The notes under the pieces are model-generated. The model was not told where the DNA came from. It saw nothing but the letters and a program-made list of their open reading frames with translations, and made no database searches. A DNA stretch of 64,000 nucleotides from a virus (lineage: Duplodnaviria > Heunggongvirae > Uroviricota > Caudoviricetes), in the IMG/VR virus record IMGVR_UViG_3300025782_000009. The stretch is one strand, 5' to 3'. Of this stretch, positions 3,799-30,000 are shown in pieces (the stretch's first letter is position 1; each line of letters begins with the position of its first letter). The position numbers and the translations under genes were made by a program.

Positions 3799-3807
3799 GG
3801 TCTACCA

Positions 3808-3975
3808 ATGTATAAAGTAATTGAAAAGAATAACCCGCTCGCCGTACATTGTATTTGTGACACCCTGGCACGCGCCGAGCATTGGATTAAACACACCGCC
3901 CCGGAGTATTGCTCAAAGGGTTATTTTATAAATAAGACCTTGAACCCGGAAAGTTTCACAATTAAAAAGGCTTAA
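3808..3975 (+). CDS. Hypothetical small protein (55 aa), below the ORF-track cutoff
   Basis: Hand-translated as MYKVIEKNNPLAVHCICDTLARAEHWIKHTAPEYCSKGYFINKTLNPESFTIKKA. Preceded by the taaggtctaccaATG motif. Confidence 0.4.
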   Translation: MYKVIEKNNPLAVHCICDTLARAEHWIKHTAPEYCSKGYFINKTLNPESFTIKKA

Positions 3976-3978
3976 ACC

Positions 3979-4110
3979 ATGTACACAGTAACCTACAAAG
4001 ACACAGGCGGCGGGCTATTCGGCGATTCTATGGAAACCCGCACATTCTCAAAATATCAAAGTGCCCGAGTATTCGCCCGGGTAAAACGCGGAACTATAAC
4101 AAAGGTTTAA
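3979..4110 (+). CDS. Hypothetical small protein (43 aa)
   Basis: Hand-translated as MYTVTYKDTGGGLFGDSMETRTFSKYQSARVFARVKRGTITKV. Preceded by the aaaaaggcttaaaccATG motif. Confidence 0.35.
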   Translation: MYTVTYKDTGGGLFGDSMETRTFSKYQSARVFARVKRGTITKV

Positions 4111-4112
4111 AA

Positions 4113-4286
4113 ATGCAATTTAAAGAATTAAAAGCAGATCAAAAATTTTACGACTTAAACAGTGGAGAATATTTTTTAAAAGTATGTCAAAACTGTGCGG
4201 AATGGTTACCAAATTCTCATCACCAATCCGGTCAATTAGTTACTTTTGATGAGGATGAATTTGTTGATTTGGTTTTGGAAAAATAA
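4113..4286 (+). CDS. Hypothetical small protein (57 aa) with a CxxC pair, in an AT-rich island
   Basis: Hand-translated as MQFKELKADQKFYDLNSGEYFLKVCQNCAEWLPNSHHQSGQLVTFDEDEFVDLVLEK. Confidence 0.4.
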   Translation: MQFKELKADQKFYDLNSGEYFLKVCQNCAEWLPNSHHQSGQLVTFDEDEFVDLVLEK

Positions 4287-4300
4287 CACAAGGGAAAAAA

Positions 4301-4471
4301 ATGAAAACTTATGAAGTACATGCAACAGTAACAGAAGTTTATATTATTGAAGCCGATAACTTTGATGATGCTATTGAAAAAGCATCAGAAATGAGTAGCC
4401 CAACTTATACAAACTCGCAAGGGTTTGATTATGTAATTGATCGGGAAACTAGCGAAGACTTATTTTTATAA
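4301..4471 (+). CDS. Hypothetical small acidic protein (56 aa), in an AT-rich island
   Basis: Hand-translated as MKTYEVHATVTEVYIIEADNFDDAIEKASEMSSPTYTNSQGFDYVIDRETSEDLFL. Preceded by an agggaaaaaaATG Shine-Dalgarno. Confidence 0.4.
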   Translation: MKTYEVHATVTEVYIIEADNFDDAIEKASEMSSPTYTNSQGFDYVIDRETSEDLFL

Positions 4472-4492
4472 TTTTGAATTGAAGGCTAACAA

Positions 4493-4660
4493 ATGAAAAC
4501 ATTATTCCATGACGAATTACACGCACACCGTACCGCTCGCCGAGCTCAGGAAACCCAGCCAGATAAAAAATTCATAGTTGACCAAGTTATTTGGGGCTAT
4601 AACGCCGCCTGGATTATTTACATTTTGGACACCGATGACCGCATTGTCGGACGCCTCTAA
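4493..4660 (+). CDS. Hypothetical small protein (55 aa)
   Basis: Hand-translated as MKTLFHDELHAHRTARRAQETQPDKKFIVDQVIWGYNAAWIIYILDTDDRIVGRL. Preceded by a gaaggctaacaaATG Shine-Dalgarno. Confidence 0.4.
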   Translation: MKTLFHDELHAHRTARRAQETQPDKKFIVDQVIWGYNAAWIIYILDTDDRIVGRL

Positions 4661-4689
4661 TTTTCACAATCAACAAAAAGGAATTACAA

Positions 4690-5602: not shown

Positions 5603-6430
5603 TTGGGTCAGGCTTAGACCTGATTTAAGCAGTCCCTGGCGCTTGTGCGCGTCATTAAAATCTTCTCCTACTACGGGGCTAATCCAGTACGGAGCACCGA
5701 TTTCCTTAGCTATTCTCTCCCCCGTACCGCTCGCGTCATTGTCAGCAATCACCACGATTGGGTCAGGCTTCAAAGATTCTGCAATCTTTTTTACATTGTG
5801 CGCGGAAAAACACACATGGATTGTGTACTTCCTCTTCATGTGCTTGAGCACCTTACGAACCGATAACCCGGTCGCATAACCCTCACACAAAATATGTGGG
5901 CCTTGATTGTCAATTACAAACTCTGCCAGGCTAGTGCGTTGACCGTACAAGAATTTCTTATCTCCTGATTCGTCAATCAACTGACAACCGACAATCAACC
6001 CAGCCACGCGCATTGGCACAACCAATAGCTTTTCCGAGTCACAAGCATAGATCAACCCCTCCTCATCCTCAAACCCTTTAGCCTTTAAGTATGGATGAGT
6101 ACCGAGCTGGCACTTGGATATGATTGAGTCAACCTTAGCCTTTGCCTCCTGGTTTAATCTAATTCGATCCTGATCTACCTTGTGCAACTGAGCTCTGAGT
6201 TTAGCTGGGTCAGTCTTGATGCTTGAGTCAGAGTTCCAAATTGATACTTCTGTATCTGTCGCATGATTCTGGACAAATGCCATATCACCCATAAACTTAA
6301 CCGCACCATTACGCTTGTTTGGATGATCCTCTGTTGGGTATCTTTTCCATACGCCTATTGGTGGCATCTGATTCACGAGTATCCCGTGCGCCTTACAAAA
6401 ACTAAGCAGATCCATTGATTCTCTCTCCAA
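5585..6430 (-). CDS. DNA primase, TOPRIM domain (DnaG-like or phage/plasmid type)
   Basis: The TOPRIM signature is present: ILCEGYATGLSV (conserved Glu) and VIADNDASGTG (DxD). It is the last gene of the leftward operon, following the helicase and methyltransferase. Confidence 0.6.
   Translation of the reverse strand: MERESMDLLSFCKAHGILVNQMPPIGVWKRYPTEDHPNKRNGAVKFMGDMAFVQNHATDTEVSIWNSDSSIKTDPAKLRAQLHKVDQDRIRLNQEAKAKVDSIISKCQLGTHPYLKAKGFEDEEGLIYACDSEKLLVVPMRVAGLIVGCQLIDESGDKKFLYGQRTSLAEFVIDNQGPHILCEGYATGLSVRKVLKHMKRKYTIHVCFSAHNVKKIAESLKPDPIVVIADNDASGTGERIAKEIGAPYWISPVVGEDFNDAHKRQGLLKSGLSLTQLLNMS
5609..5625. terminator. Candidate bidirectional terminator hairpin between the convergent operons
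   Basis: TCAGG-cttaga-CCTGA stem-loop followed by TTTAAG, located between the 3' ends of the plus-strand gene ending at 5602 and the minus-strand gene ending at 5585. Confidence 0.3.
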
Positions 6431-7868
6431 TCCATCTCATTACTGGAACAGCCATTGAATTACCAAGTGCTTTATATCTTGGACCATCGGGCGTGTCTTT
6501 CCCTTTTGGCTTGATGTCGGTGTAATTATCAGGGAATCCTTGCAGTCTCTCGCATTCAACTGGCGTTAATCTTCTAACTGCCATAGACGCCTGATAAACC
6601 GCATTAACTTGCTGAGTAACTTCTGAGGATTGCGGTGACCTTGAAGGGTCATTTGTAGTTAGCGTTGGAGCAATAACAGTTCCAATTGATTCATTTACTC
6701 CGCCTTGTGGGCTTTTAATAGTTTGATTGACATCCGATAACGAATGGTTGTAGGTGTCAAAAGCAGCAACTCCATGACTATGTGCTTTTGTTAGAGTTGG
6801 ACATGGATCACCTGGATTTCCTATTCCAAAACCTCTGCGATTATCTTCTTTATCTCTACCTAACAAATTCATGGTATTTAAAGGTATTGGTTGTGCAACT
6901 CCATGCACACCCGTAGCATTAAGGGTATACATCGGACCACCCTCTGTAAATCCATCCCCATTACCGCCATTCTGCGGTTGCCTACCAATAGTATTCTCTG
7001 CCAATGCTATCGCCTGAACGAATGGAGTATTACCTCCGCCAGTACCCCAACTAGACGTTACAGTTTGGCATACATCACCCATTAGCTTGACCCTGGAGTC
7101 ACTTGGGTGGTTCTCATACACTACGCACTCTTCATGGTTGTTGCGACTCGCTCCAAAACGTGCCGTAATAGTTCCTGCAACTTGTGGATCACGAGGCTCT
7201 ACTATGCACTTTCCTTCAGATACATATTGATTACCTACTCCTTTGAAGTCTCTAGCGCACAACGCTCCAACGCTATCTGTAGAGCTTCTGGCAATTTCTT
7301 TCCTCTGCTCTCTGCTCGGCGGAGGATTCCCGCGCAAGCTTTCTGGCTCAAAAAGAACCTTTGCGGCAGACTCCCAGTCTCCAAGACATCCGACAACAAA
7401 CACACGACGGCGTCGTTGGGCCACTCCGAAGTACTGAGCGTCAAGGACTCGATAGCTCCACCCATACCCGAGTTCTGCCACCGCCCCGAGGAAGGAACCA
7501 AAATCCCGTCCTCCATTTGAACTGAGGACACCCGGCACGTTTTCCCATACGAACCACTTGGGTCTAAACTTATCAAGAATTCCGCAATAGACGAGCATAA
7601 GGTTTCCCCTTGGATCTTCAAGTCCTTTTCTGAGCCCGGCAACGGAAAAAGATTGGCAAGGTGTTCCACCGACCAGAAGGTTAACTGTTCCAAGATCCCA
7701 CTCCTTATATTTAGTCATATCCCCAAGATTAGGGACGTTTGGGTAATGATGTTTTAATACTTCGCTTGGGAACTTTTCAATCTCACTGAAACCGACTGCC
7801 TCCCAGCCCATGTGATGCCATGCTACTGTGGCGGCCTCAATACCCGCGCATACGCTTAGATATCTCAT
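6402..7868 (-). CDS. DNA (cytosine-5)-methyltransferase, orphan, with a large variable (TRD) insertion
   Basis: C5-MTase motifs are present in order: motif I VCAGIEAA, motif IV GGTPCQSFSVAG, motif VI ENVPG, motif VIII QRRRRVFVVG, then QGFPDNY and motif X ALGNSMAVPV after an insert of about 230 aa. No restriction endonuclease lies adjacent. Confidence 0.9.
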   Translation of the reverse strand: MRYLSVCAGIEAATVAWHHMGWEAVGFSEIEKFPSEVLKHHYPNVPNLGDMTKYKEWDLGTVNLLVGGTPCQSFSVAGLRKGLEDPRGNLMLVYCGILDKFRPKWFVWENVPGVLSSNGGRDFGSFLGAVAELGYGWSYRVLDAQYFGVAQRRRRVFVVGCLGDWESAAKVLFEPESLRGNPPPSREQRKEIARSSTDSVGALCARDFKGVGNQYVSEGKCIVEPRDPQVAGTITARFGASRNNHEECVVYENHPSDSRVKLMGDVCQTVTSSWGTGGGNTPFVQAIALAENTIGRQPQNGGNGDGFTEGGPMYTLNATGVHGVAQPIPLNTMNLLGRDKEDNRRGFGIGNPGDPCPTLTKAHSHGVAAFDTYNHSLSDVNQTIKSPQGGVNESIGTVIAPTLTTNDPSRSPQSSEVTQQVNAVYQASMAVRRLTPVECERLQGFPDNYTDIKPKGKDTPDGPRYKALGNSMAVPVMRWIGERINGSA

Positions 7869-13045: not shown

Positions 13046-13152
13046 TGCTCAAGCACGGCTATGGTTTGATTTTGGCTGTCGTAGGAATCGTAGTAATAAT
13101 ATTTTTTATCTACCCATCTGAGTTGTGTTGTTGGTATTAGTCTTTTATTCAT
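12952..13152 (-). CDS. Small protein (66 aa), paralogue of the 9715..9912 product
   Basis: Shares LRW.DK..Y.YDS....TI.VLEQWHQNEVLTE..GWQ.V.GGEWKEIKKE with the 9715..9912 product. Confidence 0.5.
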   Translation of the reverse strand: MNKRLIPTTQLRWVDKKYYYYDSYDSQNQTIAVLEQWHQNEVLTENQGWQTVEGGEWKEIKKEQNP

Positions 13153-13964
13153 ATGATCTCCGTTTCGAGCTTCTTAATCTTTTTCTCGAGCCATTTGATT
13201 TGCTTCTTTAATTCATCATTCTCATTCTGAAACTGATCCCGGCTGAGCTTTACCGCCTTCAGCTCCATCTCCATGTCTTTGATCTGCTGGCGTAGTTCAG
13301 TGATGTGCTCTTCTGTATGAGTTGGATCTGCCGATACTGTTACCGCCAACTGATCCAATAGCTTTTGATTCTCTTCAATCAATATTTCCAGGGCTTCATT
13401 GGCTGTATCTAGCTTAGATTCATTGACCACTGGATCGGGCGCAACACTAGGCTTGATTTTCTTTGTCTCCGTCTTGGGCTTTACCTTGCGCTCAATGACC
13501 TCTCCCTCTGAGTTCTTATACTTAATGCTCTCAGGTTGTTTGCCCTTGCGCTGCTTGGCTACAAAGGCTTCTGATACGTTACATTGCCTGGCTATTTCTG
13601 CCGTGCTCCAGTTTGACCACTCAAAGTTATCGAGCATCATCATTACTGCGTTACGCTTGTCCTCTATCGTCCTGGGCTTGCCGTGCTTGTCGTTAGCCCC
13701 TACCGCGTAGAGCACCGCATCTGATAGCGTTCCTGCCGTTACTTCTGCTTCAATGCCTGTGCGCTTAGCCTTCTGGGCTGCATGGAATCTGTGGAATCCA
13801 TCTGCCAGGTAGTAATGAACGCCATCGTGGAATATGCGTACCGGGGGAAACTCCGCTCCCGATAGCATCGCTTCGCAGTATTCATCTACTGTTGGCTGGT
13901 CAATCTCCTTTCTGCTCTGTGTGCCACAGTCAATTCTGATCTTCTTTATGGTTACTATTTGCAT
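13149..13964 (-). CDS. ParB-like nuclease-domain protein with a C-terminal coiled coil
   Basis: PVRIFHDGVHYYLADGFHRFHAAQKAKRTGIEAEV matches the ParB/Srx N-terminal domain signature. The C-terminal third is heptad-rich (ELKKQIKWLEKKIKKLE). Confidence 0.7.
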   Translation of the reverse strand: MQIVTIKKIRIDCGTQSRKEIDQPTVDEYCEAMLSGAEFPPVRIFHDGVHYYLADGFHRFHAAQKAKRTGIEAEVTAGTLSDAVLYAVGANDKHGKPRTIEDKRNAVMMMLDNFEWSNWSTAEIARQCNVSEAFVAKQRKGKQPESIKYKNSEGEVIERKVKPKTETKKIKPSVAPDPVVNESKLDTANEALEILIEENQKLLDQLAVTVSADPTHTEEHITELRQQIKDMEMELKAVKLSRDQFQNENDELKKQIKWLEKKIKKLETEII

Positions 13965-15359: not shown

Positions 15360-15596
15360 TTAATCTTCATTCTCTTTCCTATTGGCAATAATTATTTCCA
15401 TAGTTTGTCTTTGCGCTTCATACAAAGGCTTTGCACATTCTTTGCAGAGCTGGGCATTTAATCCTTGCCAATGAAATGAAAACATTCTGTGTGTTTTTGG
15501 AAATTCCATTCCCGGATAATCACTGCACTCATAAACTTCTGTATCAAGCGTCTTCTTGCAACCATCACAAATGTGTTCGTAGGTTAACTTAATCAT
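15360..15596 (-). CDS. Small zinc-ribbon protein (78 aa)
   Basis: CDGCKK ... CKECAK gives two CxxC pairs. Confidence 0.5.
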   Translation of the reverse strand: MIKLTYEHICDGCKKTLDTEVYECSDYPGMEFPKTHRMFSFHWQGLNAQLCKECAKPLYEAQRQTMEIIIANRKENED

Positions 15597-15747
15597 TCTT
15601 TATCTCCTAAATGTTTTTCTATGTACTCCCGCAACTCATCAATCTCTTCGCACAATCTATCAACAATCATTTGGTTTGTAATCATGCCTGACTGATGGTC
15701 TGGGTGCTCTTCACACCTTTGACCAAAATCTTTAATGTCTTTGTACT

Positions 15748-15957
15748 TCATTCTTGTCCCCTTGCACGAATAGCATCAGCACTAGACTTGCAACCATTCC
15801 TCCATGTTTTATTCATGTTGGCTTCAGTATTGCTCATGTCTTCACAAATCCTTGCACACGCTTCACGCTCATCTTCAGCAATAGCATCAACTATTGTGCG
15901 TACCATACCCTCACTAAAGTGTTCCAAAAGTATTTGAACCGCTGTATCTTTAATCAT
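15748..15957 (-). CDS. Small protein (69 aa), tandem paralogue of the 15954..16166 product
   Basis: Shared EREACARICEDMS / EREECAKMCDESE and a C-terminal IRARGQE / IRARGQQ. Confidence 0.5.
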   Translation of the reverse strand: MIKDTAVQILLEHFSEGMVRTIVDAIAEDEREACARICEDMSNTEANMNKTWRNGCKSSADAIRARGQE

Positions 15958-16166
15958 TGTTGTCCCCTTGCACGAATTAAATAAGCCAAATCAATTCCAT
16001 CAGGATACTCAGATTCATCACACATCTTTGCACATTCCTCACGTTCTTTTTCTATTGCCATCTCCACCATCTTGCGTAACTCATCATCACAATGAAATAC
16101 GGGTTTGAATGCGACAAGATTAACTTCTGCTTCATGGAACAACTTAATGTATTCTTCTTTAGTCAT
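15954..16166 (-). CDS. Small protein (70 aa), tandem paralogue of the 15748..15957 product
   Basis: See the paralogue. ATGA coupling. Confidence 0.5.
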   Translation of the reverse strand: MTKEEYIKLFHEAEVNLVAFKPVFHCDDELRKMVEMAIEKEREECAKMCDESEYPDGIDLAYLIRARGQQ

Positions 16167-16329
16167 TTATTAACTCCATATAAATTCCTAGAAATGTTTT
16201 TAACATCCATCGTTGAAAAGCATTAGGCGGCTTTGGTACATGGCAGTGAAAAATTATGTTGCTATCTTTACCAAGTCTAAACTTAACATTTGGCTCGGGC
16301 GGTGAATGAAAAGCATATTCTTCGTTCAT
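16159..16329 (-). CDS. Hypothetical small protein (56 aa), first gene of the leftward operon, below the track cutoff
   Basis: Hand-translated as MNEEYAFHSPPEPNVKFRLGKDSNIIFHCHVPKPPNAFQRWMLKTFLGIYMELIND. A strong aaaaaggagaacaaATG Shine-Dalgarno precedes it. Confidence 0.4.
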   Translation of the reverse strand: MNEEYAFHSPPEPNVKFRLGKDSNIIFHCHVPKPPNAFQRWMLKTFLGIYMELIND

Positions 16330-16348
16330 TTGTTCTCCTTTTTCGTGA

Positions 16349-16376
16349 AGTATACAATAGATTGTTCTGTAGTCAA
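16349..16376 (-). promoter_or_regulatory. Sigma70-like promoter of the leftward operon (TTGACT-N16-TATACT on the minus strand)
   Basis: The -35 element is the reverse complement of 16371-16376 and the -10 element the reverse complement of 16349-16354. Followed by a Shine-Dalgarno and the ATG at 16329. Confidence 0.45.
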
Positions 16377-17249
16377 CTCATGTGTTGCATGATACATTAA
16401 AAAAGATTCTTACCCTTGAACCTTCCTTCCCCGGTATTAGGGGCGAGGGGCAGATTCAAGGAACCTTTACGACAAACTCTGATCATCTTCGATCTTTCGG
16501 TAGAGCATACCGCTTCCTCTGAACTTATCGAGATAGCTAGGATGGTTGCCAGCTATTCGGGCATCTATTGCTAGAACTTCAGCGACTCTTGCGAGGTAGG
16601 TGTGTTTCCTTTTTACGGGATTTGTCTATATCCTGTTCGCTTTCGCTACTTAGACCAGCGGGTCACTGGGGCCGTTTTATGTTTTCTTCCGCGCAACCCA
16701 TATAGGTTCTTGCTAACGTGCGGAGTACGGCTGACGTATAAAGGTATAGATAATAAAAAAGCCGCTTAGCCATACATTCTGGTTACGGTCTATATCCTAT
16801 AAATACCACCGACTTATAGGATATAGCAGAATGTATGAGTAAACGGCTTACAACTAACTATTGCCCGTAACGACAACGGTTTTAGTATAGCAAATAACTT
16901 CAGGGCGTGTCAAACTAAGTAAAAATATTTGTAGTCTTGTCAATAAAAATAATGGAGTGCTACTGGCATAACTCCAACAAGAATGAGGACTGCCTTTGCT
17001 ACGGCGGCAGTCTCCAACCACCGCAGAGGTTTCCAGCCCCTGACAATCCTCATACTTGTTGGTGCGGGGTTGTTCACATAAAGCAGTGTTATCACAACTA
17101 AGGAGTACAAATTCACTTATCAACCGAGCCGGCGCTAACCCGACTTCAACCCCGCGCATCTAGTATACAAAAAAAATGGGGATGCCACACGACACCCCCA
17201 AAATCCATTCAACAGAAAGGAACTACAAATGAAAAAAACCAACTGAATT

Positions 17250-17561
17250 TTATTCGCAAGCTTTCAAAATTGCAAGCGCATCTTCAGGGGATTCCACTAT
17301 TGCCAATAATCCACCCGTCCATTCATCAAAAAACTTCTGCTCCGCCTTGGTCAACTTCCTGGCACTTGGTGTTTTGTTGCCGTCCTTTACTTCCAAGAGC
17401 AACGTATATCCTTTATAGCCCACCAAAAGATCCGGCACACCATCTCCCATCGTCACAATACGCACATATGCCCCAGCTTTTCGTAGGGTTTCTACAATAA
17501 TACTTTCGTTGTCATCTCGTCTTGCGGAGTATCTCATATTAAACCTTTCGTGGGGGGTCAT
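17250..17561 (-). CDS. VRR-NUC domain nuclease (PD-(D/E)xK). The probable start is the internal ATG at 17537 (95 aa), which has a gaaaggtttaatATG Shine-Dalgarno
   Basis: GVPDLLVGYKGYTLLLEVKDGNKTPSARKLTKAEQKFFDEW matches the VRR-NUC D...E.K core. Confidence 0.65.
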   Translation of the reverse strand: MTPHERFNMRYSARRDDNESIIVETLRKAGAYVRIVTMGDGVPDLLVGYKGYTLLLEVKDGNKTPSARKLTKAEQKFFDEWTGGLLAIVESPEDALAILKACE

Positions 17562-17575
17562 GCCTAACGTTAGGC
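17562..17575. promoter_or_regulatory. Perfect 14-bp palindrome GCCTAACGTTAGGC, a candidate operator in the divergent control region
   Basis: Read directly. It lies 25 nt upstream of the VRR-NUC start, next to a copy of the leftward-promoter motif ATACAATAGtTaGTTCTG. A related palindrome, GCCTGAGTCAGGC, lies at 5065..5077. Confidence 0.4.
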
Positions 17576-17613
17576 GTGCGATACAATAGTTAGTTCTGGT
17601 GTCATTCTATCTA

Positions 17614-17642
17614 TTGACATTATTCAAAACAAGATATAACAT
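17614..17642 (+). promoter_or_regulatory. Sigma70-like promoter of the plus-strand recombination module (TTGACA-N17-TAACAT)
   Basis: Hexamers read directly. The first gene ATG is at 17675 with an aaaggaaacacaaATG Shine-Dalgarno. Confidence 0.45.
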
Positions 17643-17674
17643 TCAAGCCCCAACAACATATAAAGGAAACACAA

Positions 17675-17935
17675 ATGATTGATTTAAACGTAAGTCTTCG
17701 AGACTATTTCGCGGCTCATTGCCCGGACTCTGAACTCCCACAAAGTGTATCAGAGGGTGACATTATCAAGGCTTTGAATATGACACCGCAGAACGGCGAA
17801 CGGCTTGATCCTGAGTTTAGAAGGGCTGCCACAGTGCAGATCAGATGCTTGGCTAGGTATGCCTATGCCGATGCAATGCTAGCTGCTAGAGAGACAAAGG
17901 AGGATGCAGATGAAAGCATTTCCGAATCCGAATAA
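17675..17935 (+). CDS. Hypothetical protein (86 aa)
   Basis: ORF with a consensus Shine-Dalgarno. Confidence 0.5.
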   Translation: MIDLNVSLRDYFAAHCPDSELPQSVSEGDIIKALNMTPQNGERLDPEFRRAATVQIRCLARYAYADAMLAARETKEDADESISESE

Positions 17936-18095
17936 CACACAACAAGCCGGCATGGATCTGAGAGATTGGTTTGCAGGGCAAGTATTACCTAAGTTGATTG
18001 GTACTGCACCTATAAATTTAGCCGCACAGTCAGCTTATCGTTGGGCAGATGAAATGATGAAAGCGAGATCAAATGAAGATAACAAACAAGTTTAA
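17904..18095 (+). CDS. Hypothetical protein (63 aa)
   Basis: ORF overlapping its neighbours. Confidence 0.4.
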   Translation: MQMKAFPNPNNTQQAGMDLRDWFAGQVLPKLIGTAPINLAAQSAYRWADEMMKARSNEDNKQV

Positions 18096-18969
18096 TCTGC
18101 CAGAGACAATCCTAAACGTACTGGCTCGCCCTACCTATTCCAAAGGCAAGGCTAATATTTCGGCTACTGAATTGATCAATTCACCCCGTATCGTGCAGCT
18201 CAAAAGGAAGCACTGGGACGAGGTGGAGGAGGATGCAAGCTCTATGGTCTGGTCACTGTTTGGCTCTGCCGTTCACAATATCCTGGAGCACGGCAAGCAG
18301 GACAATCATATCGTTGAGGAACGAGTGCACATTACCCACGAGGGATGGCATATCTCCGGCGCAGTAGATCTTCAAGAGGTCTATGAGGACGGAATTGTTA
18401 TCAATGACTACAAGACCACTACCGCCTGGGCTGTACAAAACGACAAGCCGGAATGGGAAGAGCAGCTCAACATATACGCCTGGCTAATCCAGAAAGCTAA
18501 GAATAAACCCGTCAAGGGCTTGCGTATCGTAGCCATAGTGCGCGATTGGAGTCAAAGAGATGCCGTGAATAGGGAAGGCTATCCGCAAGCGCCTATCGTG
18601 ATCCTAGACCAGCAGCTATGGCCTTTTGAGAAGGCTGAACTGTTCATTGAGGAAAGACTAAAGGCACACGGCGAAGCTTACTTTGAATCCGAGACAGACG
18701 GTCAGCTGCCAGAATGTTCACCAGACGATATGTGGGAGAAGCCAACAACCTATGCCGTGATCAAAGTCGGTGGCAAGAGAGCTAAGTCAGTCCATTCCAC
18801 AAAGAGGGACGCGGAAGCAGACTTGGATACAGCCGGCAAAGGATACGAGATCCAGGTCAGACCAGGAGAACGGACACGGTGCAGCAGCTACTGCCAGGTC
18901 AATCAATGGTGCAGCCAGTACCACAAATATTTACAAGAAAACGCAATCGTTGAAGAGGCAATTGAATGA
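18073..18969 (+). CDS. PD-(D/E)xK exonuclease, Cas4/RecB-like, with a C-terminal Cys cluster
   Basis: AVDLQEVYEDGIVINDYKTT carries the D..E.K catalytic core. The C-terminal cysteines are CSPDD ... CSSYCQVNQWC. It is paired with the downstream ERF annealing protein. Confidence 0.7.
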   Translation: MKITNKFNLPETILNVLARPTYSKGKANISATELINSPRIVQLKRKHWDEVEEDASSMVWSLFGSAVHNILEHGKQDNHIVEERVHITHEGWHISGAVDLQEVYEDGIVINDYKTTTAWAVQNDKPEWEEQLNIYAWLIQKAKNKPVKGLRIVAIVRDWSQRDAVNREGYPQAPIVILDQQLWPFEKAELFIEERLKAHGEAYFESETDGQLPECSPDDMWEKPTTYAVIKVGGKRAKSVHSTKRDAEADLDTAGKGYEIQVRPGERTRCSSYCQVNQWCSQYHKYLQENAIVEEAIE

Positions 18970-20162
18970 AAAAAGTAATTCACGAAGCCGATTCCAGACC
19001 CATAAAGATCTGGACGGATGACGTAGAAGAGGAGGCGCTGACCCAGCTTAAGAACCTGGCAAGGCTGCCCTTTATCAACCATCACGGCGTAGTCTGTATG
19101 CCTGATGTTCATGCGGGCAAAGGATCGACCGTGGGAACGGTTATAGCTACCGAGAAGGCGATTATTCCTGCTGCTGTAGGCGTTGACATTGGTTGCGGCA
19201 TGAACGCTGTTAGAACGTCTTTAAAGGCTTCTGACTTGCCTGAATCTTTAAAGGATGTCCGTACCCAGATTGAGCGTGATGTTCCGCTGGGCGCAGGTGG
19301 TCGGGTTCAAGCAGCAATTGATATTGATGATCGCATGAAGCGCTTGCCAAAAACATCATTTGATCTTTGCACAAGGCTAAATGAGATTATCGGTGACTAC
19401 TGGAAAAAGGCTGCCCCACAACTTGGGACGCTTGGATCAGGTAACCACTTCATTGAGCTTTGTATTGATGAGAACCAGGATGTATGGGTAATGCTTCATT
19501 CTGGATCTCGCGGAATAGGAAACATGATTGGCTCTTACTACATTGAAAAAGCCAAGAAAACAATGGAGAAGTTCTTTATCCATCTGCCTGATTCTGACCT
19601 AGCCTATTTGCCAGAGGATACCGATGACTTTAATGAATACATGGATGCCGTGAGTTGGGCGCAGAGCTATGCATTGGAGAACCGCAAGCTAATGATGGAG
19701 ATTGTTTTGGATGCGCTCAGAAGGCATATTTCAAAAGAATTCACGATTACCCAAGAGGCGATCAATTGCCACCATAACTATGTAGAGAAGGAGAATCACT
19801 TTGGAAGAAACCTCTGGGTTACTCGTAAAGGAGCTATTCGTGCGAGATCCGGAGACCTTGGAATTATTCCAGGTTCGATGGGTCAAAAATCATATATTGT
19901 CCGTGGCAAGGGTGAGTTGCAATCCTATTGTTCTTGTTCGCACGGGGCAGGACGCAGTATGTCCAGAGCTGAAGCTAAAAGGCGCTTCAGTATTGATGAC
20001 CTCATTAAACAAACCGAAGGAGTAGAGTGCCGTAAGGATGCGGCAGTGATAGATGAAATCCCAGCTAGTTATAAAAACATAGATCAGGTAATGGCTAACC
20101 AAACAGATCTAGTCGAAGTAGTTCACACCCTAAAACAAGTAATGTGCGTCAAAGGCGCTTAA
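18966..20162 (+). CDS. rtcB: RtcB-family RNA 3'-phosphate ligase
   Basis: Conserved metal-site motifs GSGNHF, HSGSRG, NCHHNY and CSHGAGR are present. The length (398 aa) matches bacterial RtcB. Confidence 0.9.
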   Translation: MKKVIHEADSRPIKIWTDDVEEEALTQLKNLARLPFINHHGVVCMPDVHAGKGSTVGTVIATEKAIIPAAVGVDIGCGMNAVRTSLKASDLPESLKDVRTQIERDVPLGAGGRVQAAIDIDDRMKRLPKTSFDLCTRLNEIIGDYWKKAAPQLGTLGSGNHFIELCIDENQDVWVMLHSGSRGIGNMIGSYYIEKAKKTMEKFFIHLPDSDLAYLPEDTDDFNEYMDAVSWAQSYALENRKLMMEIVLDALRRHISKEFTITQEAINCHHNYVEKENHFGRNLWVTRKGAIRARSGDLGIIPGSMGQKSYIVRGKGELQSYCSCSHGAGRSMSRAEAKRRFSIDDLIKQTEGVECRKDAAVIDEIPASYKNIDQVMANQTDLVEVVHTLKQVMCVKGA

Positions 20163-21085
20163 AGGAAACACAAATGAGTTTATTTTTTATTGCAATTTTT
20201 TTATTAGCCGCCCCAATTGGCATTGGCTATGGTTTGTATATTTTTTCTTTGGCAGACGTAAGGGCTAGGAACTCAATGAGAGACAAACAAGTTCCTGAAC
20301 CAACGTTTAAGCCAACACTGCCAGCCGTTACAGGATTAGTCCTAATGCTTCTGTACATTAGTCTTGAATCCTACGTTATTGTTCCTGCCGGTCATATCGG
20401 CATTCAGGTGACGTTTGGCACGGTCAACCAGGAAACACTGGGCGAAGGCTTGCACCTGGTCAATCCATTGTCTAGCGTACAGAACCTGGACGTTCGTTTG
20501 GTATCTGCCAAGCTTGCGGGATCGGCCGCTGGGACTAAAGATCTACAGCAAGTACACACCGATATCGTTGTGAACTACCGTATCTCTGGCGACCGAGCAG
20601 CCCATATCTACAAGGAGTTTGGTTTAGATCTTCAGGATAAAGTGGTCATGCCTTTTGTCAACGAATCGTTCAAAGCCATTACCGCGCACTACACCAGCGA
20701 GGAGTTGATTACTAAGCGGGACGAGGTATCCGCAGGAATTAAGCAGGAGCTGTCAGACAAGCTGGGAAAGTACAACATTATTGTGAGCGATATCTCTTTG
20801 GTGAATTTCGGTTTCTCTGCCGAATACCAAAAGGCTATCGAGGCAAAGGTAATAGCAACGCAAAGCAAACTCCAGGCGGAGCAAGACCTAGCCAGGATTG
20901 AGGTAGAGGCTAAGCAGACTATTGCCAAGGCAGAGGGTCATGCAAAGGCTATCCAGATTGAGACGGCTGCAATCAACTCACAGGGAGGACAGTCATACGT
21001 TCAACTCAAAGCCATTGAGAAATGGAACGGTACTTTGCCTAGCACCATTGCCGGGGGCGCGACACCGTTCGTGAATCTGAAATGA
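20144..21085 (+). CDS. SPFH/Band-7 (prohibitin, HflK/C-like) membrane protein. The likely start is the MSLFF... ATG at 20174
   Basis: N-terminal transmembrane segment FFIAIFLLAAPIGIGYGLYIF, then an SPFH domain (NYRISGDRAAHIYKEFG ... FGFSAEYQKAIEAKVIATQ ... coiled coil). Confidence 0.8.
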   Translation: MRQRRLKETQMSLFFIAIFLLAAPIGIGYGLYIFSLADVRARNSMRDKQVPEPTFKPTLPAVTGLVLMLLYISLESYVIVPAGHIGIQVTFGTVNQETLGEGLHLVNPLSSVQNLDVRLVSAKLAGSAAGTKDLQQVHTDIVVNYRISGDRAAHIYKEFGLDLQDKVVMPFVNESFKAITAHYTSEELITKRDEVSAGIKQELSDKLGKYNIIVSDISLVNFGFSAEYQKAIEAKVIATQSKLQAEQDLARIEVEAKQTIAKAEGHAKAIQIETAAINSQGGQSYVQLKAIEKWNGTLPSTIAGGATPFVNLK

Positions 21086-23674: not shown

Positions 23675-24049
23675 GTGCACTGGTATTTAAAGGCAAGATG
23701 TTCCGGTGCACCCATTGTGGTATCAAGTGGGCTTCTATCGAACCGGCAGAGGCTCACATCTGTGAAGAACGAAATGCAAAGCAAGAACAAGAAACCACCA
23801 ACCGCATCAGAGAAGAAACACATCCAGAGGGTAAAGGAGATGCCATGTATCATATGCGGCGCATCCTCACCGAGCGATTGCCACGAGATTAAACAGGGTC
23901 AGTGGTTTACTTCTATCCCGCTATGCCGGGATTGCCACATGGGCAGCCACAACGGCATACATGGTCGTAAAGCTATATGGAATGTAAAGCGCCTAGACGA
24001 ACTAGACGCATTAGCCCTCACTATCGAAAAGCTTATAACTGAGCCATAG
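23675..24049 (+). CDS. Small HNH-type endonuclease-like protein. The real start may be internal (about 23844); it overlaps the alternative ORF 23665..23892
   Basis: CIICGASSPSDCHEIKQGQWFTSIPLCRDCHMGSHNG has the pattern CxxCG ... DCHEI ... LCxxCH. Confidence 0.45.
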   Translation: MHWYLKARCSGAPIVVSSGLLSNRQRLTSVKNEMQSKNKKPPTASEKKHIQRVKEMPCIICGASSPSDCHEIKQGQWFTSIPLCRDCHMGSHNGIHGRKAIWNVKRLDELDALALTIEKLITEP

Positions 24050-27000
24050 CACGAAGCTTCTTAATATTTATATTCTTTAAGATCAGCTCTTCTTGTTTGT
24101 GTAGATTCTCAATCTGCTTTTCTTTCTTGTCCGGATCCATGTTCGGCTTGTTGCTGATAATGGCTATAGCGTTTTGGATGTTAGATAGATTCTTAGCTAT
24201 CTTATCTATATCGCTATGCATACCAACCCGCATCTGGTGCTCTTTTGACTTCATGTAATCAGCCGCCTCGCTTGGGGTGCGCTTCTTAATATCATTGAAC
24301 GTAGCAGATGCTTTGTCTACTTCATCCTTCAGAATATAGAAGTCACGTTTCAAGCCGGTCTGGTTTTCCTTGGATATAAATCCACTAGATCCTGGGACAG
24401 AGGCAAGCACATCATGCCAGCCAATCGTAGGTCTTTCTACATTTGGATCTGTGTGCAGGATTGGATTGGTCAGCATAAGCGTTAGACCGCCAACAGAACC
24501 AAACATACCGCGGATGATATGGTCAGCGTTGATAGGCGCAATCAACCCGGTCTTACCAAGTACCTTACCAAGCTCAGATGTTGAGTCATTGAACTGCCTG
24601 GATACATCCTCCTTCAGCATGAACGGATTGATCAGGTTGCGGTTCTGGAAAAAGTCATAGTTCAGTGCAACTTCAACTGCTGGCTTGATAGCCTGGGGAA
24701 CAGGAGTAGGAGCCATCAAAGATGAAGTCAAAGCTGATGCCATTGAATCTCTAAACTTACGCCCGTCTTCTGTAGCGTTGTTGGTCATCAATAAATACAG
24801 GTGCTCTGTAATGATCTTTGGAATGGTAAAGACATCGTTCCTGAGTGGAATGCTGAGACCGCCAGATCCAGGGATCATTAGCAGTCTATCCCGTACAGTC
24901 GTTGGCTTCTTTAGGTAGTCATCATCGTCACCGTTCATCATTGCGTACAGCAAAGATAAAGCCATAACAGATCCGGTAGTCATAGCAAGGGTTTGTAATC
25001 CTGCCTTCCTCTCGGTCGGGGATATGCCCTCGCCGGTAATGGTTTTGAATGCTACGTTTTGAACAGCAAGGTAGGCATTGAAGAACGGTATAACTTGGCT
25101 AACTACGCGCAGGGTGGTAGATGTACCCCTCCTACGCACGTTAAACACCTCAAAGGCTTTCTCAATAGCCTCACCGCGGGTCAGTCCTGCCGATACAGAT
25201 GCCTCGTATACAGCTTGTCTAACAGCGTTATCTGATGCCATAGAGATATGCTTGAGCATACCTTTGACCTTGCCCCATCCGCCTGGTGGTGGTTTAACGC
25301 CGGCATAAACCTCAGCATCTCTACGCGCCAGATCAGATGTAAAGTCTGTATATCCTACAGCTCTGTACTTCTTAAGCTCCTCATGGGTTGTACTGGTACG
25401 TCTAAGCGTCTTAACAAACTCCTTGGCTGCAAGCGCAGGGATTCTCAGGGCGTACTGTGGAGACAAGCCGGACGTAAAGATAGCGGAGAACGCATCTTGT
25501 GGTACTTGGCTGACCGCAAAGAGCGGGTTCATTACAACAGATTCTCTAAGGATGTTTGCAAACTTGGAGAAGAACTTAACAGTAGGAACAGATACCGCCT
25601 GGATACCGGCAAAGGCATCTACAAAGAGCGGATCCTTCATGTCGTAAAACTCTTCCTTACCATCTCTCCAAATGCGAACCACGTTAGCATTCTTAATGGG
25701 ATGAGGAATCTTCTTAGCTATACCAAGGCTTTCCAAGTCCTTGCTCATAGCTGTATCAATCATCGCCTTAGCCTGGGAGTTTCTGATGGAACGGTTATAT
25801 GAATACTCGATCCACTTCGCCATGTTGTCCACGATATTGGCAACTGGTCTTTCAGATCCGGTCATCTTGAACTCTCTGGCTTTAACCATCAAGCCGGATA
25901 GATAGTTCTTATCTCCGCCTTTAGCCTCTTCCTCCTCGAACTCGCGCTGGAACGGAACGTAGTCAATGTTTGACATCATCTGCTCTGCGTACTCTTCACT
26001 CCACAGACCAGACTCAACCAGAGCGTCCTTAGCGTTGTTTCTCATGCCCTGCCAGATATCCACAGTATCTTGCAGCTCAGGCATAGACTTAAAGAAATCA
26101 AGACCTGTAGCAATCTGCTCGTCCGATAGATGAATAAGCTTTGGCTTTTGCTTGGCAAGATTCTCAAACCTAGAGATAGCAGCCTTCACTTCTGCCCTCT
26201 GCGCCTTGGTATCAGGATCATTCCCGGTCAGGCTGTTCAGTAGTTCATTGAGAGCCTCGATCTCTTCAGGAGCGCTGGCAATAGATGCGTTGAAGTCTTT
26301 CAGCGACTGGGTACGTCTAGCCTCAAACGCCATGTGCGTAACAAGCTCTGCCTCCTGGTACGTCATGTTGTACTTATTGGCAAACTCACTAATTGATTTA
26401 ATAAGTTCTTTTAAGTTGTATCTATCCTTTACAACCTCCCACTTCTGAACATCATCATCGTATCCCAGCTTTCCATCAAGCAGTGCACCATTGGCAACAA
26501 TATCAGCACCAACAGCTTGGCTGGTACTGATATTAAGCCGGTTTCTAACCTTATCACTCATCTCGCCATCCGCTTGCATGATGCCGCGTTTGATGTTGTT
26601 ATTGAATGCAGAGTCACTGCTAAATATCCAGGTCTGTATCTTGTCAGAGAACTTGGTAGCAGCTTTTTTGGCATCTTCTATAGCCATGCCAGGATTGTCT
26701 ATAGCGTTATCCCAGTAGCTCTTAAGGTTCTCGTAGAAACTCTTTGGTTGCTCTTCTACTTCACGACCCATATCCCTTAATGAATCAAGTGCATCTCTGC
26801 CCGCGCCAGTGGCTTGACTTGGCTGGATTGGAGATTCCTCTGCGGTCATCTTTGGATTTGATTTCAGCCTTCCCGGAGGGGCTTGAGGAGTAGTTGGAAC
26901 ACCTAATGTGTACCCTTTCTTTTCCAGATCTTTAGCAATCTCTAGCGCTGGATTTTCAAACATATCAGTAGATATTCTGATTAATCTATCCAATGCTGTT

Positions 27001-30000
27001 TCGTATTCTGGAGATAAATTTAAAACCTTACGGACAAACTCCATCAATTTATCAAGAGCAGTCTTATTGCCAACTTTAATTCCAGCCAAATATTTCTGCA
27101 TTGCAGGATCGGTCAATCCTTGCGTAATAAACTCAGCATAGAAATCACCCTCTACACCTGTTGATTTTTTAAAGGCATAATTAATTGAGAATTCATCTCT
27201 AATATATTTGCCTTCTTTCTTGTCCTTTCTCCATTGTTTATGAACAAGCTTTCTTAAATCATCTAATTCTTTTACGAGAGGATTATCTGTGCCAAGGAAT
27301 TTAATTTCCGCCAAAGAAATAAGATGTATAAATTCATGCGCTAAGACTTCAAAAGTAGAACCCTTCTCGCCATTAATTTCCATTATGAAATTTATTTTCC
27401 CAAGACCTGAAGGACTAAATACTCTACCCAAAGATGAACGTTTTTTATTCATTACATATTTGGTAGAAAAAGTCATTGGTACGCCGCGGCGATCAAACTC
27501 TTGTACTTTGCGAAGAATGTGTTCAGCTATTCCTTTGTGATATGAGTCATGCGCTATATCAACTAAAATCTGCGCTGCCTCAACAATATTTTTACCATTT
27601 AACCTTTTAAGCAATTCTGCTTTGCTCAACTGAGGCTTTTGGAAAAAAGTATCTTTTGTTGGCGGCTCATCTGGAGGAGTAAATAAATCTTTCTCTCCTT
27701 CAAATGCCTTTTTAAACACCTCATCCAGCGAGCGTTTGGGAACTTCCCCGAACATATCTGTGTCTGTTCTGTTGTGCTCTTCAAGCGCGGCATTAGCTAA
27801 GTTATTTAATCCTTCGGTAATCTTCTTACCCGACCTGCCAGAGTCTGCAAACATTTGAAGAATTCTTTGGGTATAAGGATTAGTCCCTATATCCATTTGC
27901 TTAGCCATATCTTCAAGCGGTATATTTCTACGCCTTGCATTAACCGCTGCTTCTGCGGCTTGGGTTACATAAGGACGGATATCGTACTCTCCAGCGCCAT
28001 CAAGCTGCGCCATCTTAGGAGCAACGGTTCCAAGTGAATTTAATACAAGTCTTGACTCAGCATCCCTGGTTGGCCCATACAGATTAATTAACTGCTCATT
28101 GCCATATGCCTTCCAAAACACAGCATTCATCAAACGATCTTCTGCTTTCTTTGAAGGCTGACCAAACAAGTCCTTTAAATCAGGATGCTCTGATACCGGC
28201 ATCGCATTAACAAAGTCCCGCAATGAATCAATATGCGGATCACCGTTATCATAAAATTTCAAAGAATTAATATCTATTCGGTTGGCATCTTGTTTGGCTG
28301 AATCAATAGCTGACAAACCAGAGATACCAGATACGTTTGATATATCACCAATGTTAGGCGTAATAAAAGACTTAGGCATCACCCGCACCAACACGGGCTG
28401 CTTCATGTCCGCAATAGTCTTGGGATCAATGCCGTGGGCTGCATCGTTAACCAACTCTTCCTTGTACTTGCCAGCTGTTCCGCGCTGATAAGCCTCTTGT
28501 ATACCTGCTACACGACCATTACCCGCAACCGGGCGAATAGCAGAGACAGATAAATCCTGGTACTCAGCATTCTTTGTGCCATCATGGGAATGAGATGGTA
28601 GCAATTCATGTGCATCAACAACTGCATACCTAACTGGAATCTTTGTTCCGTCAGATGCTGTGGTCATCTCATAGTTTCCAAGCTGGTTTTCGTTTAGCTT
28701 CTCATCGGTCATAACCACTGGAGCGCCAGAACCAAAACTGCGAGATATGCTTAAATCGTTATATCTTGGATTAGCTGCAACACCTTGCATTTGCTGAATA
28801 GATGCATCTGTAGATCTGTCTCTATTTTGAAAGACCGTACTGGATGCGTCTGGCAACCCTTGGTGGTAATTCTCAAAGTGCTGAGACAAGTCTGGATTTG
28901 CACCTGGCGCAACATTTCCCGGTGGAGTAGTAGGAGGATTGACCGGAGGCGTGGCAGGTGGAGTCTCAGGAGCAGCTGGAGGAGCGGGCGGAGTAGTACC
29001 CGGCTTTTGTGCGGCTGCTGGCTTCTGAAGCAAACCCATACCACCGGCAGTACCAATAGCACCAATACCCGCCTGGGCAGCAGTGCGTCCAAGATTCTCT
29101 GTTAACTCTGCATTAGGATCTACCTGTTGCTGAGCTACGTTCTGAGCAAGCTGTCCACCAACTTCCTCAATCTCTTCACTGGGTAGCTCACCAAGGGCGA
29201 GACCTGCTGCATTACGCAACCTACCTGCTTTACCTGCTTTACCTGCCAATGCCTCAGCAAACCTGTGTCCGCCTGGTAGATTCTGAGCGCCAAGGGATAT
29301 AGCTGCACCTGCAACACCAGTAGCCCTAGCGTACTTCAATGCTCTTTCTTTAGCCTCGTCCTCTGGTACGCCATCAGCAATCATCTTGTCATAGGTTGCT
29401 TTGTATACCTGTGCACCTACGTCAGAGCCTTGCTGTAAAGCACCAGTACCGATAGCAGCCCGTGCGCCAGACTTAACGGCAGCAGCTTGAGCAGCTTCAG
29501 CAGCAGCCTTCTCGGCAGCAGTACCTACGGCTTTCCTAGCGGCAGCTCTAGATGCGGCAACAGCAGGAGATAGTTCAGGAGCAGCAATAGCAGCAATAAT
29601 AGCCGGCAATTGTTCAGGTAACTGCTGGGCAATAAAGTTAAGACCAAGACCAAATGGGTCTTTGATTGTCTCTAATGCTTCACGACCAAGGGCGCTGAGC
29701 TGTCCACTCTTTTCCGCTTCTTTGACCTTCTCTTCTTTGAGTTGTTCCCTAGCTTTTAAACCAGGAGACTTCATCTCTTCGCCGTACTGTTGCAGCTTAT
29801 TACCAATAGCCATTACGCCGGTATCGGAGAAATCTCCAGTAGCCAGACCATACATCTGCGGTACAAACTTAGCTGCACCACCAACGCCAGATACTAATCC
29901 AGCACCAATGTCCGTTGCAGCCTGACCAAACGTCCTGCTTGTATCAGGAGCTTTGGGTGGCGGCGGAGCGGGTAGATCAGAAATGTCTACTGGTCTAGGC

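Follow-up and report, generated by a model that had tools for sequence, protein, structure and literature searches.

The pRNA of phage phi29, which is about 120-170 nucleotides (nt) long and is made from an early promoter, has complementary hairpin and bulge loops that covary while the primary sequence drifts, and these loops pair between copies over 4 nt to build a ring. The P1/P7 c4, P4 CI, ColE1 RNA I/II and R1 CopA/CopT systems consist of short structured leader RNAs whose loops pair with complementary sites; a few changed bases in such loops give a new specificity (heteroimmunity or incompatibility), and P4 CI acts through premature termination in the same leader. The pRNA is described as having a conserved 2D/3D structure and a variable 1D sequence (PMC12670572). 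In addition, the GOLLD and ROOL RNAs have only recently been shown to form RNA-only cages of unknown function; their kissing pairs, first seen as covariation, proved to be contacts between RNA copies, and GOLLD sometimes carries transfer RNAs (tRNAs) in a variable linker (PMC12286853). This paper deals with a gene-free island in a 64,000-nt stretch of DNA from a virus of the Caudoviricetes (IMG/VR record IMGVR_UViG_3300025782_000009), the whole of which is called the window hereafter. The comparisons made here support the view that the minus strand of this island encodes four or more structured RNA modules that are conserved, namely A, B, C and D/E.

The island covers about 920 bp (16330-17249) between an open reading frame (ORF) at 16159-16329 and a small nuclease-like gene at 17250-17561, both on the minus strand, and contains no conserved ORF, as a sequence-only reading of the same DNA had proposed. 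The best explanation of the island, to which a probability of about 0.75 is given as regards identity and architecture, is that it consists of minus-strand genes for structured RNAs and that a long palindrome within it is the terminator-type hairpin of module C. Of the three roles suggested earlier, an origin of replication, a ParB-binding site and a noncoding RNA, the two DNA roles found no support, but the RNA did and is larger than had been proposed: the modules on the minus strand are supported by covariation, the wobble pairs and folds are strand-biased, and promoters and U-tracts are suitably placed. The features of the central part, modules C and D/E, are as follows.

16884-16913, minus strand: putative promoter P_C, with TTGACA, an 18-nt spacer and TG-n-TATACT (11 of 12 matches, extended -10); transcription is predicted to start near 16877
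About 16877-16755, minus strand: module C as a whole, including the palindrome and made up of hairpins H1 and H2 and a run of six U residues (U6)
16861-16876, minus strand: hairpin H1 of module C, stem UUGUC/GGCAA, with loop "a" GUUACGG at 16871-16865 (from the fold)
16759-16849, minus strand: hairpin H2 of module C, that is, the palindrome, with outer and middle stems, an inner stem and a 3' bulge (from the repeat finder and the fold)
16755-16760, minus strand: U6 tract that follows H2 without a gap and precedes the D core motif by 25 nt (from the sequence)
16666-16752, minus strand: module D, the conserved core at the 5' side of the large RNA (matched by covariance model R1 with 76.5 bits, E = 2e-19)
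16406-16665, minus strand: module E (type 1), the body of the ornate RNA (alignment A2, 8 sequences)
16399-16404, minus strand: U6 run, a possible 3' end of D/E, about 10 nt after the last E helix (from the sequence)

The palindrome had been reported at 16771-16837, where it is present exactly as written, and it reaches 91 nt (16759-16849). Its outer arms (16759-16781 and 16827-16849) are 23 nt long and 87% complementary, and its inner arms (16790-16802 and 16814-16826) are perfect. The minus-strand fold of 16877-16752 has an energy of -52 kcal/mol (z = -7.1, 0 of 200 shuffles being equally good) and is 12.6 kcal/mol more stable than that of the plus strand (-39.4 kcal/mol). Because H2, closed by GCCG/CGGC pairs, is immediately followed by U6, it has the form of an intrinsic terminator, that is, a G+C-rich stem-loop with a direct U-tract, and termination there is predicted from the sequence; a simple terminator scan does not list H2 and its U6. 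The second copy of GTCTATATCCT that had been pointed out is real (16624-16634 and 16788-16798), but a functional pairing of the two 11-mers was rejected: the copy in the palindrome is missing in the closest relative, locus L001, so the repeat is treated as coincidental. By our own estimate, chance alone would give about 0.3 such 11-mers in 1.5 kb, and the copy at 16624 falls within a conserved motif of the E RNA (GGAUAUA).

The sequence of the palindrome is not conserved among the 58 loci compared by BLAST and nhmmer, but a block of about 60-100 nt just downstream of it is. C hairpins diverge greatly in sequence between loci, yet their architecture is kept in 70 distinct relatives, with a shared plan of a 16-20 bp stem, one or two inner hairpins and 7-10 nt unpaired on the 3' side. 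A hairpin with a U-run is found at most 40 nt upstream of D in 95 of 109 unique loci containing D, module A is inserted between the C-type hairpin and D in five more, and the hairpin is wanting in only three; the distance from the U-run to D has a median of about 19-21 nt in the 70 parsed hairpins. In L001 (4178-4330, compared with 16881-16765 of the window) D/E is 95% identical to that of the window and the promoter is common to both, yet module C is unrelated and has two inner hairpins. Since D/E is nearly identical while C is quite different, the modules are exchanged as cassettes between close phages.

The most characteristic property of module C is a second pairing outside the stems. In the relatives, the 3' bulge of H2 (a') complements the loop (a) of a small hairpin about 20 nt upstream, and in the window GUUACGG in the H1 loop (16871-16865) complements CCGUAAC in the H2 bulge (16788-16782), a pair which was also listed by the repeat finder. 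A perfect a/a' complement of at least 7 nt is present in 64 of the 70 distinct hairpins, compared with 22 of 1359 (1.6%) in cross-locus controls, in which the bulges and leaders of different loci were paired. There are 42 different "a" sequences among the relatives, the pairing is 7-9 nt long, and "a" lies within a hairpin loop in 51 of the 64 cases. When linker and stem lengths were compared with regard to pairing in cis or in trans, the geometry was constant, with 16-20 bp below a' and a gap of about 12 nt. Moreover, hairpins that are otherwise identical differ solely in a/a' (CUUCCAC in L097 and CUCUCAC in L119), the loop compensating for the change, and a like difference between L104 and L161 is confined to a/a' and compensated in the same way. 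The substitution density is 0.13 inside a' and 0.038 outside it (odds ratio 3.8, p = 0.002, from 10 close pairs that are not independent). It is thus well supported by the sequences that the H1 loop and the H2 3' bulge form a pseudoknot or kissing contact. From phage to phage, a/a' changes faster than the remainder of the hairpin and therefore resembles a specificity code, which could serve folding in cis or the pairing of RNA copies with one another.

In its complementary and covarying hairpin loop and bulge, module C is like the pRNA of phi29, although its pairing is 7-9 nt and not 4 nt long and no Rfam family is matched. There is a resemblance to c4, CI and the antisense RNAs in that change is fastest in a/a', within a leader hairpin which is conserved elsewhere and closes with a terminator. 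Unlike them, it has no Rfam match and no additional targets within about 5 kb beyond chance (1.37 copies of either sequence, compared with 1 plus a control of 0.55), and a third copy as a target in trans was therefore rejected. In addition, a single RNA strand carries both a and a', and their complementarity is thus not automatic, unlike that of antisense pairs. By analogy with ROOL and GOLLD, a contact between RNA copies is possible.

D and E together occupy 16752-16406, about 330 nt. The D core consists of the 5-bp helix P1, an invariant 11-nt internal loop ACGWUAGYAAG and a hairpin P2 of many sequences, and is bordered by the invariant single-stranded flanks CCGUAC and AAGRAAA; in the window the order is CCGUAC, P1 (16724-16720 with 16692-16688), the 11-nt loop ACGUUAGCAAG, the P2 hairpin (16708-16704 with 16699-16695) and then AAGAAAAC. 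Covariance model R1 has a single match in the window (16752-16666, minus strand) and matches 19 of the 58 loci retrieved with the nuclease-like protein, and the D motif CCGTACTCCGMRCGWTAKYAAG occurs once each in at least 120 IMG/VR viral contigs. In an alignment of 44 sequences, 90.9% of the cells are paired and 58 cells show double changes, against 17.9 after shuffling (a value as high came from 0 of 500 shuffles), and controls in which the pairing was slid drop to 31-54% paired. Furthermore, rare divergent cores compensate in P1, such as UCCAU/GUGGA (L011), GAG/CUC (L021) and GGG/CCC (L045).

The body downstream of D takes several forms which cannot be aligned with one another. The form in the window (type 1) is alignable across six lineages. 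Its consensus contains 58 pairs, and compensatory double changes occur at 37 of these; the structure includes two long-range helices, by which the body is closed (columns 105-107/333-335 and 155-160/322-327 of alignment A2). Other features of E are a hairpin in which the loop UGACCCG is invariant, a second hairpin, in AAGUAGCGAAAGCGAA, whose GNRA cap can be GAAA, GCAA or GUAA above a covarying stem, and the motifs GGAUAUAGAC and GUAAAG. The last hairpin (16470-16412, then GGGUAAGA) had been noticed earlier as a minus-strand hairpin followed by a T-run; it is real and covaries (columns 336-385), with an unremarkable stability (z = -1.45), but as the T-run at 16399-16404 begins about 10 nt past the stem, it is not a canonical intrinsic terminator. 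This U6 run was not called by the terminator scan and is absent from some relatives.

Two further motifs were seen near D/E. A pyrimidine tract like the anti-Shine-Dalgarno end of 16S rRNA (CACCUCC, CUCCUCCUAC) often stands just upstream of the D core, for instance between module A or C and D in L009, L012, L015, L007, L171 and L169, and the window has a weak version of it (ACCUUUAUAC). An inverted motif, AUAUAACNGGUAGG ... CCUACCUG, which looks like a candidate operator for a repressor, stands beside the next promoter downstream of the RNA in L011, L006, L024, L022, L041 and L052 and was not seen in the window.

D/E is similar to GOLLD and ROOL, which are phage-encoded, hundreds of nt long and folded with multiple pseudoknots and long-range helices. 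Like GOLLD, it has one universally conserved half and one variable half, but the conserved part is the 5' core and not the 3' half. tRNA genes are frequent neighbours of GOLLD and ROOL, and in five relatives the island itself holds one or two of them, on the strand of the RNA and a short way upstream of module C or D, as listed here.

L011 4485-4647, L006 4557-4628, L012 5020-5197, L021 5012-5173 and L080 896-1060, same strand as the RNA: island tRNAs of the relatives

In L068 (3327-3442, minus strand), moreover, a tRNA-like insert (Rfam tRNA, 33.7 bits) sits at the tip of a long stem inside a D/E variant; such an insert with a GGGUUCGAUUCCC T-arm occurs in L068 and, judged by eye, in L101 and L098, and it is reminiscent of the tRNAs in the linker of GOLLD. 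Association with tRNAs is not a rule, since ARAGORN found a tRNA within 1.5 kb in only 5 of 130 loci, and a search of the window gave neither a tRNA nor a tmRNA. Besides this merely occasional association, D/E differs from GOLLD and ROOL in its smaller size (about 235-400 nt), in the lack of any scoring Rfam family, in the terminator-like hairpin that obligately precedes it and in its host hints (similarity to aquatic phages and three metagenome-assembled genomes, MAGs), among which there are no Lactobacillales or rumen organisms.

Upstream of module C the island contains two more modules.

17162-17169, minus strand: putative promoter of module A, extended -10 element TGTATACT (from the sequence); the start is predicted near 17155
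17064-17155, minus strand: module A RNA, with an outer stem, a hairpin and a conserved stretch
16974-17062, minus strand: module B, a long branched hairpin with arms 17062-17044 and 16992-16974 (19 nt, 89%)

The outer stem of module A is formed by GCGGGGUUG and CAACCCCGC (17155-17147 with 17072-17064) and encloses a hairpin with the invariant loop GGGUUAGCGCC (17141-17131) and a conserved stretch, which is CACUGCUUUAUGUGA at 17088-17074 of the window and CACUGCUUUAUGUGAG in the description of the family. Forty-three distinct copies of module A, at times two per locus, occur in related loci, either behind their own -10 element or between C and D, and the same (T)GTATACT is found just upstream of the module in L001, L002, L068, L160 and L180. 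Across 27 sequences the hairpin stem has 12-13 compensatory double changes, and covariation of the outer stem, which was missed by RNAalifold because of misalignment by MAFFT, was seen by eye only; the single-sequence fold is weak (z = -1.96). Module B folds with -50.4 kcal/mol (z = -6.2), and the motif of its 3' strand, CAGUCCYCAKYCKUGUUGG, recurs ahead of copies of module A in relatives.

The strand and the mode of expression are indicated by several observations. The sense fold is more stable than the antisense fold in 64 of the 70 C modules (mean -8.1 kcal/mol) and in 84 of the 109 D/E RNAs. There are 178 G-U pairs in the H2 stems, and many G-U pairs of D/E (type 1 alignment) would become A-C mismatches on the opposite strand. 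A promoter-like motif is present upstream of 55 of the 70 C modules, compared with 8.75% of random windows, and the -10 region of P_C is conserved in L001 and L002 despite the differing RNA downstream. To judge from these motifs, the island RNAs are probably transcribed by the host RNA polymerase from sigma-70-type extended -10 promoters (TGnTATACT). The strand-biased folds, the G-U pairs, the tRNAs on the same strand and the promoter-like motifs favour RNA over duplex DNA or single-stranded DNA (ssDNA).

Granted that the island is transcribed, its elements might act purely in cis, as terminators, RNase III sites or stabilisers like the early sites of T7 or sib of lambda, without any trans-acting RNA. 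This explanation is unlikely, with a small but real chance of being right, which it owes to the long, near-perfect duplexes of H2 and B, judged suitable for RNase III, to the tandem predicted promoters, which are all aimed into the early operon, and to the U-tracts after the hairpins. However, a simple terminator or processing stem would have no need of a covarying loop-bulge pairing, of invariant unpaired core nucleotides or of a 260-nt body with long-range helices and GNRA loops, and the modules keep their identity though their order and neighbours change.

An origin of replication at the DNA level, in which the palindrome and hairpins would be unwinding or initiator-binding elements, is improbable. 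Its position speaks for it, as the island lies where the recombination and the replication/early modules diverge and as the RNA of relatives stands directly upstream of replication-initiation, helicase and primase genes; activation could come from transcription or an RNA primer, as with ColE1 RNA II or the R-loops of T4 oriF/oriG, and the strong predicted promoters could provide it. The cumulative GC skew has its minimum near 17-18 kb and turns near 17.6 kb, but this turn coincides with the switch of gene orientation and is therefore not independent evidence for an origin. Tandem Repeats Finder (score 30) found nothing in 15500-18500, where only two-copy repeats at chance level exist, so there are no iterons; no DnaA box TTATCCACA with up to 1 mismatch lies between 12900 and 26056; and the island has no AT-rich block (GC 0.36-0.52 per 100 bp), the lowest GC (0.29) being at 17600-17699, outside it. 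It is the base-pairing and not the sequence that is conserved, and the G-U pairs specific to one strand and the GNRA loops point to RNA rather than duplex DNA; a variant primed by RNA would be compatible with these results.

Covariation alone cannot separate RNA from ssDNA, and the structures are strand-specific and adjoin primase and helicase genes in relatives, so that DNA hairpins serving as a primosome-assembly or single-strand initiation signal have to be considered as well. Such an ssDNA structure is nevertheless highly improbable in view of the promoter-like elements upstream on the same strand, the U-tracts downstream, the G-U pairs counted in the H2 stems, the variable GNRA tetraloops, the tRNA-like insert inside one variant and the tRNA genes that share the island and the strand.

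That the palindrome is a DNA site, parS-like or an operator, for the ParB-like protein (13149-13964) or for a repressor has only the slightest chance of being correct, although the inverted repeat is long and the ParB-like gene is 2.8 kb away. The sequence of the palindrome is unique to this phage and is not kept even in L001, 95% identical next door, which has an unrelated hairpin at the same place, whereas its shape and the loop-bulge pairing are kept through compensatory changes. A ParB-like gene is present in 26 loci and the hairpins vary by locus (genes and hairpins being counted separately), and the imperfect arms conserve an asymmetric 3' bulge pairing with an upstream loop, which would be meaningless for a site in duplex DNA. 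Finally, a protein encoded by ORF 16854-17159 (101 amino acids, aa) or ORF 16663-16773 (36 aa) can be dismissed almost entirely, since, although these open reading frames exist, the longer one, already suspected to be non-coding, has no match in Pfam or PHROG and yields in 181 related loci (tblastn) only short fragments which never join into one frame, the DNA under it being nevertheless kept at the nucleotide level in relatives, since the shorter one by our own reading of the window starts inside the H2 stem without a ribosome-binding site, and since substitutions track base-pairing and not codons.

The modules do not correspond to known families. With Rfam 15, in the covariance scan that had been suggested earlier, there were 0 matches in the window at the gathering threshold; for the island at E up to 10 there were only chance hairpin matches to microRNA models and terminator-like small RNAs; 35 related loci gave only tRNAs and one int-alpA RNA, the latter in L080 (5427-5494, plus strand, 44.9 bits), a contig that also bears D/E; and ten more loci at E up to 1 gave only the tRNA-like insert. 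GOLLD, ROOL, C4, pRNA, 6S, tmRNA and Y RNA were rejected, as none scores near the gathering threshold, and group I and II introns, RNase P, tmRNA, known ribozymes and riboswitches give no Rfam signal. The VIPR vrRNA has tandem GGY/NN repeats with 9-16 tandem YNNGG units (bioRxiv 10.64898/2026.04.26.720920); it was rejected since neither a run of at least four units nor a 9-unit frame with at least six matches is present anywhere in the window. A search of GenBank phage DNA with 16300-17300 gave no match. No description of this RNA was found in the literature searched, and a catalogue of 10,006 unnamed candidates (PMC10690425, 2023) could contain parts of it. We rate the RNAs as a new family or set of families of ornate phage noncoding RNA, the distinctive feature being an obligate terminator-hairpin partner with a hypervariable pairing code.

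As to how the unit might work, the host RNA polymerase would start at P_C, H1 would form first and the bulge of H2 would then dock on the H1 loop; H2 and U6 would stop most polymerases and release a C RNA of about 125 nt, and a minority would read through the terminator and make D/E. There are usually only 11-25 nt between the U-tract and D, which leaves no room for a promoter, so D/E would most likely come from read-through. Module C might accordingly have two roles, as a short RNA made in abundance and as a gate, leaky or regulated, that determines the amount of D/E and the extent of transcription into the early operon; this attenuator is put forward tentatively, as plausible but not favoured. 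It would be like promoter-proximal attenuators (riboswitch leaders and the PR'-6S RNA-tR' unit of lambda) in having a promoter and a structured leader (about 100-150 nt), then a G+C-rich hairpin that runs into a U-tract, and lastly the expressed unit. Unlike in these, the next unit is a noncoding RNA and not a gene, and no alternative antiterminator pairing was found (window and L060, by eye); unlike in riboswitch leaders, no conservation like that of a ligand pocket is evident in C. Instead, the a/a' pairing may serve the folding of the RNA or join one copy to another, the latter as in ROOL and GOLLD.

Several points weigh against this interpretation of the island. The read-through or attenuator step is derived from spacing only, and the a/a' helix stops short of the terminator strands (window and L060, by eye), so a/a' was rejected as an antiterminator. 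The H2 stem, of at least 20 bp, could alternatively be cut by RNase III. The promoters and terminators were recognised solely by their match to a consensus, under assumed sigma-70 rules, which may not be those of the host, and the evidence that a/a' is hypervariable comes from 10 pairs that are not independent. By itself the D core shows no unusual stability (z = -0.08), its support being purely comparative; the relatives were gathered with an exact 22-nt motif covering the 5' strand of P1, so the visible variation of P1 is suppressed and the set is biased to one core type, and many loci are closely related, so that the cell counts overstate the independent events.

The flanking nuclease-like protein retrieves 58 related contigs from IMG/VR. 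Among 185,579 species genomes the D core is found in only three, all of them MAGs (Legionella sp., a Burkholderiales bacterium and Sulfuritalea; loci L179, L180 and L181, the last being 457-545 of a 187-kb contig of the Sulfuritalea sp. MAG), so the element is essentially phage-borne. A relative may be integrated in the long Sulfuritalea contig, which also gives a hint that the hosts are betaproteobacteria. The usual gene upstream of the RNA unit, on the same strand, is a small nuclease-like gene. For that of the window, which had been called a VRR-NUC gene, the nuclease assignment has a PHROGs "endonuclease" as its sole match (phrog_93, E = 5.5e-9), but Pfam gave none, and only a weak PD-(D/E)XK-like similarity connects it with the commoner 117-aa version. 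Farther upstream, on the opposite strand, are PD-(D/E)XK, Sak, YqaJ and NinB genes, and downstream on the same strand are replication-initiation, ParB-like, helicase, Toprim and RuvC genes, or small early genes. This neighbourhood indicates that the RNA unit marks the head of the early/replication operon, and its fixed position between the nuclease/recombination and the replication/early genes points to a role early in infection.

The boundaries of the island in the window are marked by two further elements.

16349-16376, minus strand: putative promoter of the leftward small-gene operon, with TTGACT, a 16-nt spacer and TG-TATACT, the boundary of the island (promoter scan)
17169-17200, minus strand: predicted intrinsic terminator of the upstream nuclease-like gene, stem 17200-17177 and a T8 run (terminator scan)

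This terminator has 10 pairs, 6 of them G-C, a loop of 4 and the tail TTTTTTTT. A near-repeat of 24 nt (83% identical) links 16352-16375, in the early-operon promoter, with 17581-17604, in the putative promoter of the nuclease gene, and these may be two copies of one promoter type. The island had been described as the only large gap of the genome, which is essentially right; one other stretch of at least 600 bp without ORFs of at least 60 aa (3799-4689) holds five successive tiny ORFs of about 43-57 aa on the plus strand, each with a purine-rich stretch ahead of it, which we read as a candidate ribosome-binding site. This region was therefore rejected as a second RNA island.

The window represents most of a phage genome and encodes ejection and virion proteins, tail fibres, a helicase, a C5 methyltransferase and a ParB-like protein, as well as a PD-(D/E)XK exonuclease, RtcB and an SPFH protein; queries of GenBank phages with structural genes gave only a partial tail-fibre similarity, to aquatic phages. 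The methyltransferase is a C5 cytosine DNA enzyme of 488 aa (6402-7868, minus strand) with a Pfam match in two stretches. An ORF of 2000 aa (24033-30035, minus strand) matches solely PHROGs of unknown function and adjoins ejection-protein-like genes; its product is probably a virion or ejection protein of giant size. The gene for the RNA ligase RtcB (18966-20162, plus strand, Pfam E = 2e-130) is full-length, lies 1.7 kb from the island and is flanked by the PD-(D/E)XK exonuclease and the SPFH/Band-7 protein (18073-18969 and 20144-21085). RtcB joins 2',3'-cyclic phosphate and 5'-OH RNA ends, from which a link to the processing of the island RNAs is conceivable; a Y RNA tied to this gene was rejected, there being no Rfam match.

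A further proposal is doubtful, with a modest chance of being right: by analogy with the systems described at the outset, C and D/E could be a new class of self-organising ornate phage RNA, in which a/a' would be a programmable address between copies and the invariant D core a catalytic, ligand-binding or protein-binding centre common to many RNA bodies. If this is true, the a/a' address would drive the phage-specific assembly of homo-oligomers, or it would be a means of self/non-self control of transcription by RNA among co-infecting relatives, like the heteroimmunity of P4 CI or P1 c4. More generally, large, intricately folded phage RNAs are rare, and this locus adds at least four conserved modules outside Rfam 15, which more than 100 contigs of uncultured phages carry in a constant position between the recombination and the replication/early blocks. 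The a/a' pairing is unusually clean, with 42 sequence versions in one geometry, and could serve as a programmable RNA-RNA contact. For the annotation of phage genomes, the lesson is that a big "empty" gap can be dense with function.

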